From: a bacterium
GTDB taxonomy: Bacteria > Patescibacteriota > Patescibacteriia > 2-01-FULL-39-33
Length of the DNA stretch: 64,000 bases
NCBI GenBank assembly: GCA_029558735.1
Contig: JAKQDP010000070.1
Location: forward strand, 42,700 to 106,699
Direction: 5' to 3'
Within the stretch, counting starts at the first letter, position 1; the number at the start of each line of letters is the position of its first letter. The position numbers were made by a program, and so were the translations under genes. Positions 7,700 to 41,739 of this stretch are shown here, piece after piece. The notes beneath the pieces were generated by a model. It ran no database searches and was not told the DNA's origin. It worked only from the letters and a program-made list of their open reading frames with translations.

Positions 7700-8110
7700 G
7701 TCCAAACAAGCTGGATGACTGCTCGGTTTTAGCTTTAAACGCTTTGACCGGGAGGAAAGTCCGAACACTCTTTCCGTTTTTTTTTCGGAATGTCGTGGTA
7801 GTGGCTAACGGCCACCCAGGTCGTCGCAAGGCGGTCTGAGGACTAGTTCCACAGAGACAATACTATCCCGAGCAATCGGGACAAATGTGAAAAGTGTGAA
7901 GGTGTTTTAAATTGGGCTAGAGATATCTCCTCAACTTAAAGCTACTTCACTCGGCCTCTGGCGACAGAGTGCCCGTGGTAAACTCTACCTAGTGCAACCC
8001 CAAATCTAGTCGGGGGCTCGAGCTGGCCAGTAATGACCAGCCCAGATAGATAGTCATCGCTCTGATTATTGTCAGAGTACAGAATTCGGCTTATAGGCTT
8101 GTTTGGACCA
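7700..8110 (+). ncRNA. rnpB: RNase P RNA (bacterial type A-like)
   Basis: Conserved P4 5' strand GGAGGAAAGTCCG at ~7751-7763. GGTAAACTCtACC motif at ~7975. Conserved 3' element ACAGAAttCGGCTTATaGG at 8079-8097. P1 pairing: ccaaacaagc at 7703-7712 pairs with gcttgtttgg at 8096-8105. The 61-aa ORF at 7942-8127 on the opposite strand is spurious. Confidence 0.8.
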
Positions 8111-29703: not shown

Positions 29704-30900
29704 TTATCGTCTTCTTCTTTTCTGACGGCTGGCGCGATTGCCAAAGCGGTGCGCCTCATCCCTAACCTGGAGCAAAATATTTTTACTGTTGGCAGCCAAG
29801 TCCTTGATGGACTTTTTGGTTTGCGGCGGAAACACCAGCTTATCCCCGCCGAATTTGGAAAGACCGATAATCGGGGTGGCAATATTGGATTTTCGCAAAA
29901 TCTTGAAAGCATAATCCACTTGAGGCTTGCCGCCATCTATCAGAATCAGATCGGGTAATGGCCACTCCAGATGCCTAAACCGCCTCAACAATGTTTCCGC
30001 CAAGGCCGCCAAATCATCGCCGGGCAAAGCCTCTCTAATACTAAAAAGACGGTATTGGCTTTTGTCCGGCCGACCATCTCTAAATACCGACATCGCTCCG
30101 TAAGTCTCCCGCCCGGACCAATGGGAAATATCATAGCCCTCTATTCTATTGATGGCTTGGGTGGAAGTTATTTCGTCCCTGGTTATCAAAGTGACATCTT
30201 GAATATGCTTCAGGGCCGCCAGTTTGTCCGGGTTTTCTTTTTTTAGTTTATTGACCAGCCTCGTCTTCTGTCCGCCTAAAAGCAAACTGATATTTTTAAT
30301 ATTTTTTTGATAATCCTCACAGCTAATAGCGCCGATGCAGCTGCCCGGACATAAGCCGATTTGCTGATCAAAACAGGGCCGTCCTTGATTGGGCCGGCAA
30401 GTGCTGTAAGGAAATATCCGTCTGATCACTTTAAGCGCATTATTGATCAAGCTAGCGCTTTGATACGGGCCGAATATTCTATTTTTGTTGGCGGGAAATT
30501 TTTTCAATTCCCGCTCCCGGACTATCATCGGCCGGGGATAAGCACCGGCCGTCAGCACAATATAAACAAACGACCGATTATCTTTGTCTTTAACATTGTA
30601 TTTGGGCCAATATTTTTTAATCAGTTTGGCCTCCAAAACAACCGAATCCAAAATATTTTCAGTTGGCTGATACTTAATACTCTTCGCCTGATTGACCATC
30701 TCGGCAATGCGCGGGTCAATGTCTTTCCGGAAATACTGCGCTATCCGTTTTTTCAAGCTGGTGGCTCTGCCAATATAAAGCACCTCGTTATTTTTGCCCA
30801 ACCAAAAATAAACACCGGGCGCGTCTGGAAATTTTTTCGTTTTATTCAATATTTTATCTGTCATAGGATTTAAACCAATCATTCTTAGCACATTTGCCAT
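29704..30900 (-). CDS. uvrC: Excinuclease ABC subunit C (short form, 398 aa)
   Basis: N-terminal GIY-YIG (PGVYFWLGKNNEVLYIGRATSLKKRIAQYF), a UvrBC-interaction region, and RDEAHRFGNRASR at the C-terminus. No HhH tail. Confidence 0.75.
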   Translation of the reverse strand: MANVLRMIGLNPMTDKILNKTKKFPDAPGVYFWLGKNNEVLYIGRATSLKKRIAQYFRKDIDPRIAEMVNQAKSIKYQPTENILDSVVLEAKLIKKYWPKYNVKDKDNRSFVYIVLTAGAYPRPMIVRERELKKFPANKNRIFGPYQSASLINNALKVIRRIFPYSTCRPNQGRPCFDQQIGLCPGSCIGAISCEDYQKNIKNISLLLGGQKTRLVNKLKKENPDKLAALKHIQDVTLITRDEITSTQAINRIEGYDISHWSGRETYGAMSVFRDGRPDKSQYRLFSIREALPGDDLAALAETLLRRFRHLEWPLPDLILIDGGKPQVDYAFKILRKSNIATPIIGLSKFGGDKLVFPPQTKKSIKDLAANSKNILLQVRDEAHRFGNRASRQKRRRR

Positions 30901-30923
30901 AGACGGAGAATACCCGTCTCTAT
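30899..30923. repeat. REP-like imperfect palindrome immediately downstream of the RAYT gene
   Basis: atagacgg-agaatac-ccgtctctat. Shares the core TAGAGACGG with the palindrome inside the gene. Confidence 0.35.
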
Positions 30924-30931
30924 ATTTTAAT

Positions 30932-31447
30932 TTATTTGATATTAATCGGATTGTTTTTGTCTTTATCCCACATCCTTGGATTATATTTTATATAATACCT
31001 GATTTTGTCCAAAGATTCAGCATTGGTTCTTATAACATGGTCATAAAACCTGGATTGCCAAGAAAAATTTTTATGGCCGGCAAGATGAATTTTCCTAGTA
31101 CAAGCTGATTTAAATGATCCAACAATATTGGATAATGAACTGGTTTTGCCTTGTTCCGTAGAGACGGGGCATGCCCCGTCTCTACCCGCATTATCAGAAT
31201 TATTATTAATTTCAATTATAAAATGAATATGATTTGGCATCACAATGAATTCATCCAAAACACAATCAGAATAATGTTTTGAGAGTTCTTGCCAATATTT
31301 GTAACAAATACAACCTAATTTATTCAATCCCATTATCCCATTTTTCACCCTGCCCAAACAGCATTTTCTGTCTTTGACGCATATGGTAATAAAATACAAA
31401 CCCGGACTGGAATAATCATAAACATGCCACCGCGCTGAATTGACCAA
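30932..31447 (-). CDS. REP-associated tyrosine transposase (RAYT / TnpA_REP, IS200-IS605-like Y1 HuH transposase)
   Basis: HuH motif MPNHIHFII. SACT...RFYDHVIR...IRYYIKYNP matches the E. coli RAYT architecture (HAC...RFWEHAIR...YIYINP), including the catalytic Tyr region. 171 aa. Confidence 0.7.
   Translation of the reverse strand: MVNSARWHVYDYSSPGLYFITICVKDRKCCLGRVKNGIMGLNKLGCICYKYWQELSKHYSDCVLDEFIVMPNHIHFIIEINNNSDNAGRDGACPVSTEQGKTSSLSNIVGSFKSACTRKIHLAGHKNFSWQSRFYDHVIRTNAESLDKIRYYIKYNPRMWDKDKNNPINIK
31158..31185. repeat. Perfect 28-bp palindrome embedded in-frame in the RAYT gene
   Basis: gtagagacggggcatgccccgtctctac is its own reverse complement and encodes GRDGACPVS. Confidence 0.6.
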
Positions 31448-31524
31448 ATACTTATTTTGATAATAATTATTATCAATATTTTATCTAAATTTAGACAAAA
31501 TATATATTTTATGGAAAAATACCC

Positions 31525-31553
31525 TTGACAAAATAAATTAGACGTGATATAAT
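31525..31553 (+). promoter_or_regulatory. Consensus sigma70 promoter (TTGACA-17-TATAAT), divergent from the RAYT gene
   Basis: TTGACA at 31525-31530, 17-nt spacer, TATAAT at 31548-31553. Confidence 0.55.
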
Positions 31554-31756
31554 TGTATGTTGGCCTGTCATAGTGATAGGCCTGAAACTGGGAGGAAAGG
31601 AATGTCCCAGTTTAAAGACTCCATTTAAGGGTGAAAAAAACTCCTGCCGGCATACGGGTCGCCGCGCTGGAGGGGAGAAAACGCTTTATTTGCCAACCGG
31701 ACGCGATTGGCAAAAAAAATAAAGCGTTACGGACTCGAAGTCAGCTGGCGAGTTTG

Positions 31757-31838
31757 CGCAAAGTAGCCGCCACTTAAGTGCCGACGAAAGCGTAACTTCG
31801 CAAAGTAGCCGCCACTAAGTGCCGGCGAAACCCGAGAG
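31757..31838. repeat. Tandem direct repeat, 2 x ~42 nt, each carrying the 10-bp palindrome CACTTAAGTG (second copy CACTAAGTG)
   Basis: cgcaaagtagccgccacttaagtgccgacgaaa repeated 42 nt apart. Confidence 0.55.
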
Positions 31839-31913
31839 GCGTTTGAGATGCCTCTGTCCAGCTGAAACGGGACCTGACCAGTCCCTATAAACCGACTCCC
31901 TCACCCGATAACC

Positions 31914-31952
31914 AGCCCCTTGCCCAAGCGAGATAAGCAAGGGGTTTTTTAT
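31914..31952 (+). terminator. Intrinsic terminator (plus strand only)
   Basis: Hairpin ccccttgc-ccaagcgagataa-gcaagggg followed by tttttt. No U-tract on the minus strand, so it does not serve uvrA. Confidence 0.6.
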
Positions 31953-31963
31953 TTGCAAAAAAA

Positions 31964-34525
31964 CTATAAATATTTTTTAAGGTACTGACCGGTAATGCTT
32001 TTCTCATCCCGAGCGACTTCCTCGGGCAAGCCCTTGGCTATCACTCGACCGCCGCCCGCTCCGCCATCCGGGCCCAAATCAATAAGCCAATCAGCAGATT
32101 TAATAATATGCATATTATGCTCAATTATCGCAATGCTGTTACCCCGCTCAATCAATTTATTCAATACTTCCAACAACAATTGGATATCATAATAATGCAA
32201 GCCGACTGTCGGTTCATCCAAAAGATAGAGAGTCTTTTTGCCCAGAGTATGTGTTAGTTCCCGAGCCAGCTTGATTCTTTGCGCTTCGCCGCCCGATAAC
32301 GTGGTGGCGCTTTGGCCCAACTGCAAATAGCCCAAACCGACCTCCTCTAATACTTTCAATTTGTCGGTAATTTGGTATTGGCCGTCAAAATAATTAAGCG
32401 CCTCATCAATGGTCAATTCCAGCACTTCGGCAATATTTTTATTTTTGTACTTGACCTGCAAAGTTTCTCGATTGAAGCGCCGGCCGTGGCACACTTCGCA
32501 TTCCACATAAACCGGCGGCAAAAAATGCATCTCAATTAGATTAAAGCCAGCGCCGGCGCAGGCCTCGCACCGCCCGCCGGCGCGATTGAAAGAAAAACGC
32601 GATAACGTGTAAGCCCGCTCCCGCGATTGGGGCAACTGGGCGAAAAACTCGCGAATCGGCATAAAGATGCCGGTATAAGTGGCGGGGTTGGAACGCGGGC
32701 TGCGGCCAATCGGCGACTGATCCACTACTACCGCCCGATTAATATACTCACTACCGACAATCTTGCTGACATTTTCCAGCTCCTGTCGATGGCCGCTCTT
32801 GATTTTGACCAAATTGCGATAAAGAACATCATACAATAAAGTTGATTTGCCACTGCCGGACACGCCGGTGACGCAAACCAATTTCCGAAGCGGAATCTCC
32901 ACCTGAATATTTTTCAAATTATTAGCTCTGGCGCCGATAATCTTAATCATTTCGCTATCCTTCATTCGTCGGTGGGGAAAATTGATTTCCTTTTTGCCCC
33001 GCAAATAATCCAGTGTCAATGAATCTGCCGGGCTGTTTTTACTAAGCAATTTGTTGACTTCCCCTTGCGCCACCACTTCCCCACCCTGCCGACCGGCCAA
33101 CGGTCCCAAGTCCACCAAATAATCTGACTCCCTGATCACTCGCTCATCATGCTCGACAATAATCACGCTGTTATTTTGATCCCGAAGCGATTTTAAGGTG
33201 TCAATCAATTTTTCGTTATCCCGCTCGTGGAGACCGATAGTCGGCTCATCAAGAATATAAAGCGTATGCGACAGATGCGAGCCGATTTGCGAGGACAGCC
33301 TGATGCGCTGGGCCTCGCCGCCCGATAATGTCTCGGCTTCGCGGTCCAGCGACAAATAATTCAAGCCGACCTGAAGCAGGAAAAACAGCCGATCGCTCAC
33401 TTCTTGGATGATATCGCCGGCGATTTCCTGATTGCGCTTGCTGATTTTTTTACGGTAATCTTCAAAAAAATCATACAATTTGTCTATCGCTAAGGCGCTG
33501 ATTTGGGCGATATTTTTATCCAGTATCTTGATCGCCAATGTTTCCGGCCGCAACCGCTGGCCGGCGCAGGCCAAACATGGTTTAGTCACTCGCTCATACC
33601 GATTGGCCACCTCCCCCACCTCCCCGTCTTTAACGGCTATTTTCTTTTTTTCCCAGGATTCCAATCGGCCCAAGCCAGAACATTGAGGACAAGCGCCATG
33701 CGGACTGTTAAACGAAAACAACCGCGGTTCAACTTCGGGAAAAGCAAAATTATCATAAGGGCAAGTCCAATTGGCCGACAATAACATTTCTTGCTGGTCC
33801 TGACCGTCGCCAAGCACTACCACCACCAAGCCATTACTGTGTTGCAAGGACGCTTCAATTGCCTCCGCCAGCCGGCTCAGATCATCCGGCATCACCTTAT
33901 CGATCACAATGTCAATATTATGCTTTTTATACCGAGCCAGCTTAATCTGTTCGTGCAGGGAATGGACTTCGCCGTCTATTCTGGCCTCGCCATAACCCAA
34001 GGCCAAATAATCATACAACAACTGATAATATTCACCCTTGCGGTCAATAACTACCGGGGCCAAAATAGTCGCGGCTCTAATCGCCAACTCTTTCATCTTA
34101 TCGTTGACAATATCCACCATCTCATCCAAGGCAAGCTTCTTAATTTTGCGGCCGCATTGAGGACAAAACACCTCCCCCACTCGGGCATACAGCACTCGCA
34201 GATAATCGTATATCTCGGTCAAAGTGCCGACTGTCGAACGCGGATTGTGCGACAGGGCTTTCTGGTCAATAGCAATGGACGGCGCCAAACCGACAATTTC
34301 ATCCACGTCCGCCGGCTTCATTTGACCCAAAAATTGCCGGGCATACGGCGACAAGGACTCAATATAACGCCTTTGGCCCTCGGCAAAAATAGTATCAAAA
34401 GCCAAAGAAGACTTACCGCTGCCGGACAAACCAGTAAACACCACCAGTTTGTTGTGTGGTATTTCCAGATTGACATTTTTTAAATTATGGACCCGTGCTC
34501 CGCGAATAATTATTTTATCTGGCAT
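31964..34525 (-). CDS. uvrA: Excinuclease ABC subunit A
   Basis: Two ABC ATPase halves ([16 protein letters not shown]; [10 protein letters not shown]), zinc-finger Cys clusters and LSGGEAQR signatures. 853 aa. Confidence 0.9.
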
Positions 34526-41386: not shown

Positions 41387-41466
41387 GAATCCTAACTCTC
41401 ATTAAATAATTTAAATAGACACCTTTTGGGTGCCTATTTAAATTATCAAACTGCGGGACTAGGATT
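41387..41466. repeat. 80-bp direct repeat, copy 1; contains a duplicate of the last 16 nt of tRNA-Gln
   Basis: gaatcctaactctcattaaataatttaaatagacaccttttgggtgcctatttaaattatcaaactgcgggactaggatt is identical to 41605-41684. Confidence 0.7.
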
Positions 41467-41604: not shown

Positions 41605-41684
41605 GAATCCTAACTCTCATTAAATAATTTAAATAGACACCTTTTGGGTGCCTATTTAAATTATCAAACTGCGGGACTAGGATT
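41605..41684. repeat. 80-bp direct repeat, copy 2; overlaps the genuine 3' end of tRNA-Gln
   Basis: Identical to copy 1. Period 218 bp. Confidence 0.7.
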
Positions 41685-41739
41685 CGAACCTAGGCTACCT
41701 GGGCCAGAACCAGGCGTCCTACCACTAGACTATCCCGCA
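41669..41739 (-). tRNA. tRNA-Gln (anticodon CTG)
   Basis: Acceptor TGCGGGA/TCCCGCA with U1-A72 and discriminator G (Gln identity). Anticodon stem-loop CCTGG-TTCTGGC-CCAGG. T-arm CTAGG-TTCGAAT-CCTAG. Confidence 0.75.

Follow-up and report, generated by a model that had tools for sequence, protein, structure and literature searches.

An in-frame REP-like palindrome inside a RAYT gene of subclass 2.4 type at the uvrA–uvrC junction of a Patescibacteria genome

In a bacterium of the Patescibacteria (CPR), a RAYT, or TnpA(REP), gene lies between uvrC and uvrA and carries a perfect 28-bp palindrome in its own reading frame. What is this palindrome, and how does a hairpin-forming sequence persist inside the gene of the enzyme that may recognize it? 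We addressed this in a 64-kb stretch of DNA (64,000 nucleotides, hereafter the window), together with homologous loci. The gene and its surroundings comprise the following features.

29704-30882, minus strand: uvrC, encoding UvrC with GIY-YIG and UvrC RNase H domains
30883-31963: block between uvrA and uvrC, missing in one relative
30932-31447, minus strand: RAYT / TnpA(REP) gene, 171 aa, TTG start, from the ORF list
30977-30994, minus strand: Y motif YIKYNP with the catalytic tyrosine Y152
31223-31231, minus strand: codons for H73-I74-H75 of the HuH motif, at the end of strand beta3, modeled as residues 73-80
31448-31477, minus strand: possible N-terminal extension, where NYY.NKY homology runs upstream of the TTG
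31964-34525, minus strand: uvrA, encoding UvrA

The initial annotation called the 171-aa ORF a RAYT on the basis of the motifs HIHFII, SAC, RFYDHVIR and YIKYNP. All four are present: HIHFII spans residues 73 to 78, N72-H73-I74-H75 precedes a variable loop, and KSAC and RFYDHVIR occur as described. The identification itself also stands. The ORF scores 28.7 bits against Pfam Y1_Tnp (PF01797), above the gathering cut-off of 23. The best NCBIfam model is REP_Tyr_transpos (NF047646), with a score of 57 bits that falls below the equivalog cut-off of 80; judged by its sequence score, the protein is not an equivalog of NF047646 under the NCBI threshold. The sole PDB match by sequence was marginal (4er8, E = 0.25), and confirmation of the fold therefore needed structure prediction. 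The AF2 model (pLDDT 83.6) matched Escherichia coli TnpA(REP) (4er8) in Foldseek with an rmsd of 2.7 Å, and its best 30 PDB structural matches were all TnpA of IS608, ISDra2 or IS200, or 4er8. The model supports the assignment of the gene product as a Y1 HuH single-strand DNA endonuclease of the REP-associated type.

We found 1157 homologues of the protein. Across an alignment of 45 sequences, H73, H75, W130-Q131 (the WQ motif), Y152 and N156 do not vary, P157 hardly varies, and the consensus of the Y motif is YIxxNP. In the same alignment an ATT codon at 31475-31477 aligns with the homologue Met, as it does with the orthologues L205 and L207, within the possible N-terminal extension. At the other end, the protein stops 14 residues past the Y motif and has no C-terminal tail domain. 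Comparison with a sister strain gave a pN/pS of 0.0097/0.151, a ratio of ~0.06, indicating that the RAYT gene is under purifying selection. By its motifs and the internal REP described below, the protein matches TnpA(REP) subclass 2.4, as defined by Quentin, Siguier, Chandler and Fichant (2018, BMC Genomics 19:475; PMC6006769), which equals RAYT group 4 of Bertels et al. 2017 (PMC5581495).

The gene had been described as an insertion between uvrC and uvrA, and comparison with relatives bears this out. In a relative with a 67%-identical UvrC, only 3 nt separate uvrA from uvrC and there is no RAYT, and two relatives with 70%-identical UvrC carry an orthologous RAYT at the same junction. The locus context is identical in three independent assemblies. 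As read from these aligned gene orders, the comparison shows that the block entered between uvrA and uvrC in an ancestor and was inherited vertically thereafter. Alignment of the RAYT–uvrA spacer with the orthologous loci revealed no conservation beyond the promoter region.

The palindrome, the loop that contains it and a related copy beyond the stop codon are located as follows.

30900-30923: putative decayed 3′-flanking REP copy, TAGACGG-AGAATAC-CCGTCTCTA, in the 49-nt spacer from the RAYT stop to the called uvrC start
31136-31207, minus strand: variable loop, residues 81-104, between beta3 and helix alphaC, without secondary structure in the model
31158-31185: putative internal "double-foot" REP, a perfect 28-bp palindrome with the halves GTAG-AGACGGGGCA and TGCCCCGTCT-CTAC, in frame

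The perfect in-frame palindrome reported at 31158-31185 proved to be exactly that: its sequence, GTAGAGACGGGGCATGCCCCGTCTCTAC, is a 14+14 inverted repeat. Because it starts with GTAG and ends with CTAC, the same GTAG-plus-stem is presented on both strands. It is the sole perfect even palindrome with a stem of at least 12 in the window, and none of 200 block shuffles exceeded a stem of 11. The fold predicted for it as single-stranded DNA is a 12-bp stem capped by a CATG loop (dG −13.3 kcal/mol, z = −5.6). It is translated as (G)RDGACPVST, between H75 and Y152, with the frame kept. The encoded residues, G88 to T97, sit inside the loop of residues 81 to 104, which is disordered in the AF2 model: pLDDT is below 50 for residues 86 to 100, and the following helix spans 105 to 122. 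The "~15" extra residues originally given for this segment are about right, the excess being ~13 residues relative to palindrome-free homologues and ~21 relative to E. coli TnpA(REP), measured from HuH to WQ.

The related imperfect palindrome reported past the stop was also recovered, at 30900-30923, 9 to 32 nt beyond the RAYT stop. This apparent REP remnant forms an imperfect hairpin with a 6-bp stem (dG −5 kcal/mol) and is the only REP of the same type within ±1000 nt of the RAYT gene; none was found 5′ of it. Just past the RAYT stop, a REP is present in at least 12 homologous loci, and the orthologue L205 has an AGACG...CGTCT hairpin immediately 3′ of its stop. A role for the 3′ hairpin as the RAYT terminator was rejected: the terminator-like match is on the plus strand only, whereas the genes are on the minus strand, where there is no T-run.

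Upstream of the RAYT gene, at ~300 to 380 nt, we observed a different pair of short GTAG-headed hairpins. A structured unit of ~390 nt in the upstream region contains GAGGAAAG- and GGGUGAAA-like strings suggestive of RNase P RNA; this identity was rejected because the bona fide RNase P RNA is at 7703-8109. Rfam (E up to 1) and ARAGORN searches over 30800-32100 returned nothing relevant, which places the hairpins outside known RNA families.

If these palindromes are REPs, how far have they spread? The initial annotation had proposed a search for a REP/BIME-like distribution. Exact matches to TAGAGACGG in the window number three, namely the two palindrome arms and 30914-30922 on the minus strand, within the imperfect 3′ hairpin; allowing one mismatch gave 9 matches against 5.3 expected, the exact ones being confined to the RAYT locus. 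The 8-mer feet occur in the window at chance level. Neither the window nor ~35 kb of related loci contains further copies of the motif beyond the one copy and one remnant at the locus; REP mobilization is thus not visible in this lineage. No REP/BIME-like distribution was found in the 64 kb, but the exact 26-mer is dispersed across metagenomes, in at least 120 contigs whose GC spans 0.32 to 0.68. Of 129 occurrences there, 119 are farther than 600 nt from any RAYT-like gene, and large unrelated ORFs contain some of the occurrences in frame.

Homologous RAYT genes place a hairpin at the same site again and again. A hairpin with a stem of at least 10 lies in the HuH..W segment of 52 of 78 homologous genes from many phyla; this segment holds 55 hairpins, 29 of them perfect, versus 6 in the remainder of the gene, a stretch of twice the length. 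The codon phases of GTAG in the internal hairpins are distributed 17/10/0, the zero falling on the phase that reads TAG as a stop. The loop segment is hypervariable in length and sequence, contains 0 to 3 palindrome copies and is missing from five homologues with intact motifs (P0036, P0050, P0053, P0097 and P0113). In homologues the extra segment comes with palindromic DNA and not without it, which goes against the refuting outcome named in the initial annotation. Loop peptides vary widely while the DNA remains self-complementary; comparison shows the palindrome to be a DNA-level element, not a protein motif. The proposal that the palindromes are cognate REPs, one of them internalized in frame, is supported by the GTAG foot, the defining feature of REPs, and by the resemblance between copies: across 18 homologous loci, identity of the internal palindrome is 91% to REPs flanking its own gene and 57% to those of other loci, and the internal copy matches the flanking REPs of its own gene in 17 of the 18.

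Closer relatives show two behaviors. The sister strain has lost the perfect palindrome through two synonymous changes, GAC to GAT and GGG to GGA; their rate is close to the overall synonymous rate and the protein is conserved, which fits a passenger. Orthologues with 58% protein identity, on the other hand, have perfect or near-perfect palindromes in which apical stems and codon phase differ; neutral decay alone cannot account for this, and renewal or selection is required. Differences between copies within a locus are often symmetric (e.g. L012, L015 and L055), and in L016 the internal copy resembles a hybrid of its two flanking copies. Given the retained palindromes with changed stems or phase, the symmetric differences and the hybrid-like copy, it is conceivable, if rather doubtful, that the internal REP is maintained, being rewritten by the enzyme or by hairpin-templated repair from one arm or from neighboring REPs. 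If so, the coupling of enzyme to repeat would rest on the internal copy, acting as a protected master template or as a site of self-limiting cleavage.

These data probably describe a REPtron of subclass 2.4 (RAYT group 4) in Patescibacteria whose internal REP copy is a tolerated passenger. The cognate substrate of the RAYT endonuclease would be the GTAG-footed hairpin, and the enzyme would be expected to bind and cut the 28-mer hairpin. Experiments have established the GTAG foot as recognition and guide motif in TnpA(REP) groups 2 and 3, the only groups for whose enzymes binding and cleavage of GTAG-footed REP single-stranded DNA have been demonstrated (PMC8266576). One REP copy would then lie in frame in the disordered beta3–alphaC surface loop of the enzyme's own gene, and a second, decayed, 3′ of the stop. 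The internal copy presumably entered the RAYT gene through the REP copying or recombination that also sets REPs beside the gene, and it would persist because the loop takes almost any peptide and a GTAG palindrome is free of stops in two of its three codon phases. The uvrA/uvrC insertion dates from an ancestor, with vertical descent since.

A palindrome found at one site in two thirds of homologues across phyla, perfect in 29 of 55 cases, might instead be a selected cis-acting element: an autoregulation or self-limitation site, with the enzyme binding or nicking the gene or mRNA that encodes it, or a protected "master copy" through which the genetic linkage of enzyme and REP is preserved. The (near-)perfect palindromes of same-locus orthologues, retained despite a changed apical stem and phase, and the symmetric differences between copies in one locus also speak for selection. 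We consider it unlikely, since five homologues lack the palindrome with motifs intact, the copy number per loop ranges from 0 to 3, and the nearest strain has broken the stem by synonymous changes at about background rate with its protein conserved. The identity with flanking copies, extending in L018 to imperfections common to internal and flanking copies, likewise indicates that the palindrome was copied rather than conserved where it stands.

The wide dispersal of the 26-mer, largely away from RAYT-like genes and partly in frame in unrelated ORFs, would suit a foreign REP/MITE family, moved by another enzyme, that landed in a permissive loop without being cognate; REPs inside unrelated genes are documented, as intragenic GTAG/CGTC REPs (Di Nocera et al. 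2013; PMC3733652). This origin is highly improbable in view of the insertion site common to 52 of 78 homologues, the match to own-gene flanking REPs in 17 of 18 loci, the RAYT recognition motif in the foot (PMC8266576; groups 2 and 3) and the related remnant directly 3′ of the stop, as in many REPtrons. There is next to no chance that palindromy is incidental, whether through selection of the loop peptide, chance or misassembly. RDGACPVST is seen in about 15 of 120 homologues, but in the homologue P0030/L204 the other open codon phase of the identical 28-mer is used, giving VETGHAPSLQ, the peptides diverge widely over DNA that stays self-complementary, and the segment is disordered in the model. 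No shuffle attained a stem of 12, and the locus is present in three independent assemblies. Chance and a selected peptide are thus contradicted by the two-phase reading, the recurrence in 52 of 78 genes and the self-complementary DNA with varied peptides.

The tolerated passenger preferred here is not a new kind of object. An in-frame internal REP was described for subclass 2.4 in 2018 (PMC6006769), and the initial remark that internalization is unusual is mistaken for this subclass, of which internal REPs are a hallmark in the literature; in the present set, 52 of 78 homologues have one. The locus, from an uncultured bacterium, is therefore a new but ordinary example. Its novelty lies in the host, a member of the Patescibacteria, and in vertical inheritance of the insertion between uvrA and uvrC. 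As a discovery the locus matters little; it adds a clean example from reduced Patescibacteria genomes, in which an entire REPtron, inserted at a single junction and passed on vertically, can be followed and set against a relative whose site is empty. Three behaviors are combined in one unit: purifying selection on the protein, decay of the 3′ REP, and change in the apical stem and phase of the internal REP. The lineage thus offers a convenient natural series in which to ask if the enzyme renews internal REPs or if these are passengers.

Among known systems, the closest is subclass 2.4 itself. Its published criteria include NH[IFV]H, WQ, YIxNNP, a variable beta3:alphaC insertion and no C-terminal tail (Table 1 of PMC6006769), together with REPs in the ±1000 nt around the gene; its REPs are either double-foot (5′ GT[AG]G, 3′ C[TC]AC) or of the canonical long type, and double-foot REPs and in-frame REPs between HuH and Y in tnpAREP are unique to it (PMC6006769). 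The present locus has NH[IFV]H, WQ, a Y motif of YIxxNP type, a variable beta3–alphaC insertion, no tail, a double-foot REP (GT[AG]G ... C[TC]AC) with an in-frame copy between HuH and Y, and a putative, decayed gene-adjacent REP; the scattered taxonomic distribution and low REP copy number are also shared. It differs in its host, the hosts in the defining paper being Cyanobacteria, Bacteroidetes and "various phyla"; in its Y motif, YIKYNP, which agrees with YIxNNP at 5 of 6 positions and has Y for N at position 4; in its length of 171 aa versus a median of 194; and in having only a decayed 3′ REP, no 5′ REP of the same type and no dispersed copies in 64 kb.

The E. coli TnpA(REP) (subclass 2.2, group 2; 4ER8) shares the Y1 HuH fold, the WQ..RF(Y/W)(D/E)H region, a GTAG-footed hairpin (here the putative substrate) and a single-copy REP-associated gene. 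Its sequence similarity to the present protein is marginal (E = 0.25, as above), it lacks the beta3:alphaC insertion and has a short alphaC:beta4 insertion and a C-terminal extension, and its REPs are single-foot bulged hairpins, extragenic and present in hundreds of copies. TnpA of the IS200/IS605 family (IS608, ISDra2), the source of the top structural matches, is likewise a HuH/Tyr single-strand DNA enzyme that recognizes subterminal hairpins with a 5′ guide tetranucleotide. IS200/IS605 elements, however, are true insertion sequences with many identical copies and the motifs DH[VI]H and Y...Q, and their hairpins are found at the ends of the element, beyond the gene, unlike the RAYT internal palindrome. 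Rickettsia palindromic elements and the intragenic REPs of Di Nocera et al. (PMC3733652) offer a parallel in that a short in-frame palindromic repeat is tolerated in protein loops; in contrast to both, the gene that hosts the repeat here encodes the putative repeat-recognizing enzyme itself, and the site recurs across its subfamily.

The RAYT gene at the uvrA|uvrC junction, its motifs (positions read from the sequence), and the two palindromic elements associated with it are located as follows.

30932–31447, minus strand: RAYT ORF, 171 residues, TTG start
31223–31231, minus strand: HuH codons of the HIHFII motif
30977–30994, minus strand: YIKYNP motif
31158–31185: internal palindrome GTAGAGACGGGGCATGCCCCGTCTCTAC, a perfect inverted repeat of two directly abutting 14-nt arms
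30900–30923: imperfect hairpin with a third copy of TAGAGACGG, 6-bp stem, −5 kcal/mol

Along with HIHFII and YIKYNP, the RAYT protein carries the KSAC and SWQSRFYDHVIR motifs, as stated in the initial annotation. It scores 28.7 bits against Pfam Y1_Tnp (cut-off 23), and among NCBIfam models it fits REP_Tyr_transpos best (57 bits; equivalog cut-off 80). An AlphaFold2 model with 45 homologs as input has a mean pLDDT of 83.6 and a pTM of 0.79. All 30 of its 30 best PDB matches are Y1 HuH transposases (IS608, ISDra2, IS200), and the lowest rmsd, 2.7 Å, is to E. coli TnpA(REP) (4er8). In this model, HuH lies on strand 73–80, with no secondary structure between it and helix 105–122 and with pLDDT below 50 for residues 86–100. 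Because the palindrome corresponds to residues 88–97, it sits in the disordered β3–αC loop. Upstream of the TTG (31448–31477, minus strand), homology to the family N-terminal motif (NYY.NKY, just before LVNS) reaches back to an ATT codon where orthologs have Met, with a stop two codons further up; this stretch is identical in the sister strain. Judging from the sequence, the gene would either use a non-canonical start codon or have lost about 10 N-terminal residues.

The internal palindrome, which translates in the RAYT frame to (G)RDGACPVST, has no equal in the 64-kb window, where no other perfect even palindrome reaches a stem of 12. In 200 block shuffles, the stem never exceeded 11; the palindrome is far beyond chance. 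As ssDNA, it forms a 12-bp stem with a CATG loop (−13.3 kcal/mol, z = −5.6), and a GTAG...CTAC palindrome displays a GTAG foot on either strand. Exactly three copies of TAGAGACGG are present in the 64 kb, comprising both palindrome arms and 30914–30922. The hairpin that holds the third copy lies 9 to 32 nt past the RAYT stop, within the 49-nt spacer ahead of the called uvrC start. Both the in-frame perfect 28-bp palindrome and the related imperfect palindrome past the stop, as initially described, are thus borne out.

A protein search with the RAYT yielded 1157 homologs of 155 to 251 aa. Conservation across their alignment is good, apart from the segment that follows HuH, where both length and sequence are hypervariable. 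Peptides in this segment include RDGACPVST, RDVACNVST, VETHCNASLQ, VETRHASSLQ, VGTRHALSLQ, and VGNGLKPFPT; some homologs carry two or three such peptides in tandem, and others lack the segment wholly. In genomic loci (80, from many phyla: Cyanobacteria, Bacteroidota, Chloroflexota, Planctomycetota, Nitrospirota, Gammaproteobacteria, and Patescibacteria), these peptides are encoded by palindromes that start with GTAG(A/G)G(A/G)C and end with its reverse complement, and whose inner stems vary by locus yet remain self-complementary. If hairpins are counted from a stem of 10 upward, with one mismatch allowed, 52 of 78 homologous genes have one in the HuH..W segment. This segment holds 55 hairpins (29 perfect), compared with 6 in the remaining gene, which is twice as long. 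The G of GTAG takes codon phase 0 in 17 cases and phase 1 in 10; phase 2, which would give a TAG stop, does not occur. The identical 28-mer occurs in the homolog P0030 in phase 0, where it encodes VETGHAPSLQ, whereas in the window it is in phase 1 and encodes RDGACPVST. Since the same 28-mer is found in two codon phases, a selected peptide cannot explain the palindrome, and maintenance as a peptide was ruled out. This phase difference is the strongest single item for a DNA-level element.

In many homologous loci, the same or a near-identical palindrome is found a few hundred nucleotides ahead of the gene, directly after its stop, or on both sides (e.g., L003, L004, L007, L010, L012, L014, L015, L016, L018, L020, L023, L024, L054, L055, L062, and L080). 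For the 18 loci with both internal and flanking copies, the internal core averages 91% identity with a flanking copy of its own gene versus 57% with those of other genes. GTAG at the hairpin foot is the defining REP feature (PMC3733652) and the experimentally established recognition and guide motif of group 2 and 3 TnpA(REP) enzymes, which cleave at CT or CA adjoining the hairpin (PMC8266576). The identity to own flanks and the GTAG foot uphold the suggestion that the palindromes are the cognate REPs of this RAYT, and we infer that the protein binds and cuts the 31158–31185 hairpin.

Within each of the loci L012, L015, L055, and L016, the palindrome copies diverge symmetrically, with matching changes in the two arms. 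In L016 (4386–5048), the imperfect internal copy joins the left arm of the downstream copy to the right arm of the upstream copy, and looks like a recombinant or intermediate of its flanking copies. Separately, two tandem imperfect direct repeats, GCAAAGTAGCCGCCACT(T)AAGTGCCG(A/G)CGAAA, lie on the strand opposite to the RAYT, ~300 to 380 nt ahead of its start (31757–31830, plus strand). Each has GTAG immediately before a short bulged hairpin (CCG-C-CAC / GTG-C-CGG) and resembles a canonical single-foot REP; the window holds no further copies. These repeats could be a second REP type of the REPtron, or chance.

The genes around the RAYT encode UvrC, UvrA, UvrB, and TruB, and the closest UvrC homologs are from the Patescibacteria group and from Candidatus Buchananbacteria. 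The order uvrB-uvrA-RAYT-uvrC-truB is repeated in three independent assemblies of the sister strain. Two farther relatives (UvrC 70%, RAYT ~58% identical) carry a RAYT ortholog at this junction too, and a third (UvrC 67% identical) has no RAYT and a uvrA–uvrC gap of 3 nt. The block 30883–31963 is therefore an old insertion that was then vertically inherited, and the 3-nt gap confirms that the RAYT was inserted between uvrC and uvrA, as had been claimed. UvrC itself (29704–30900, minus strand; 392–398 aa) has GIY-YIG, UvrC_M, and RNase H domains and no C-terminal HhH region; because this short form is common to more than 100 Patescibacteria homologs, it is a lineage trait, not a truncation. In the 398-aa reading, the uvrC ATG would fall right at the foot of the decayed hairpin.

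Relative to the sister strain, 15 codons of the RAYT differ synonymously and 4 nonsynonymously (pS 0.151, pN 0.0097), which indicates that the protein is under purifying selection. In the sister strain, two synonymous changes (GAC to GAT, GGG to GGA) break the palindrome, and since the foot position is C in the orthologs, its state there is derived. Synonymous sites within the hairpin thus drift at about the general rate in the window/sister lineage, which argues for a tolerated passenger. In the orthologs, the GTAGAGAC foot is kept and the apical stem is different: the internal palindrome of L205, a locus with an orthologous RAYT, is GTAGAGACGTTGCGGCGCAACGTCTCTAC (29 nt, reading VETLRRNVST), and that of L207, the other such locus, matches it with one mismatch. 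L205 also has an AGACG...CGTCT hairpin immediately past the RAYT stop. The perfect or near-perfect palindromes in orthologs at 58% protein identity are in tension with a passenger and require renewal or selection, consistent with the alternative that the internal REP is selected as a cis element or actively renewed; we regard this alternative as unlikely.

Probably, the locus is a subclass 2.4 REPtron with its cognate double-foot REP as a tolerated in-frame passenger, a decayed 3′ REP, and an ancestral uvrA/uvrC insertion. The REPtron unit entered between uvrA and uvrC in an ancestor. The double-foot REP, whose route into the RAYT gene we infer, is carried in frame in a disordered surface loop, accompanied by the putative decayed copy 3′ of the gene.

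The window and related loci contain no other double-foot palindromes, with 8-mer feet at chance level, and no REP expansion is visible in the lineage in this set. The exact 26-mer TAGAGACGGGGCATGCCCCGTCTCTA is present in at least 120 metagenome contigs (L081–L200) of 0.32 to 0.68 GC; the sampled sources include groundwater, rumen, and the guts of termites and humans. REP families are normally lineage-specific, and it is unusual for one REP sequence to be shared without change by genomes this diverse. Among the matches listed, the 26-mer is inside a RAYT-like gene in 9 of 129 occurrences and adjoins one in 1 of 129; the remaining 119 have no RAYT-like gene within 600 nt, an upper estimate, as many contigs are short. 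The stop-free stretches around most listed occurrences are short, suggestive of intergenic positions, and the contig L117 has three copies. Some are in frame within stop-free stretches of 660 to 1330 codons (e.g., L102, L127, L128/L144, L177, and L178), and GTAG REPs inside unrelated genes have been described (Di Nocera et al., PMC3733652). Elsewhere, then, the 26-mer behaves like a dispersed REP, able to sit inside unrelated genes too.

In the unit at 31525–31952 (plus strand), a perfect sigma-70 consensus promoter (TTGACA-17-TATAAT, TG extension, 12/12) points away from the RAYT. The ~390 nt that follow contain no ORF of at least 60 aa, and the unit ends in a hairpin, CCCCTTGC...GCAAGGGG, and a T-run. 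As RNA, the unit has a folding z of −5.6 and no match to Rfam, tRNA, or tmRNA; RNase P RNA was ruled out, as RNase P is at 7703–8109. In L205, conservation covers the promoter and the upstream palindrome ATCTAAATTTAGA but not the transcribed part; the RAYT-less relative lacks the entire unit. An ncRNA is one possible reading of the unit, and decayed cargo of the RAYT insertion another. Farther along the window, identical 41-nt AT-rich hairpins (ATAATTTAAATAGACACC-N5-GGTGCCTATTTAAATTAT) at 41406–41446 and 41624–41664, 218 nt apart, adjoin a tRNA gene (41669–41739).

Quentin, Siguier, Chandler, and Fichant (BMC Genomics 2018, PMC6006769) split the TnpA(Y1) superfamily into subclasses, of which 2.4 is identical to group 4 in the RAYT classification of Bertels et al. 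2017. Its members (median 194 aa) have the motifs NH[IFV]H, WQ, and YIxNNP, a β3–αC insertion of variable length and sequence, no tail domain, and "long" or "double foot" REPs (5′ GT[AG]G, 3′ C[TC]AC); unique to the subclass are in-frame REPs inside tnpAREP between HuH and Y (PMC6006769). A search for subsequent papers on REPs of the double-foot or internal kind, or on cases from Patescibacteria, yielded nothing beyond this study. The initial annotation was right that an in-frame REP has been internalized, but its description of the case as unusual does not hold: the phenomenon is already published, as a hallmark of the subfamily rather than an oddity (PMC6006769). The RAYT of the window shares those of the listed subclass 2.4 features that could be compared, except the Y motif, where YIKYNP agrees at 5 of 6 positions.
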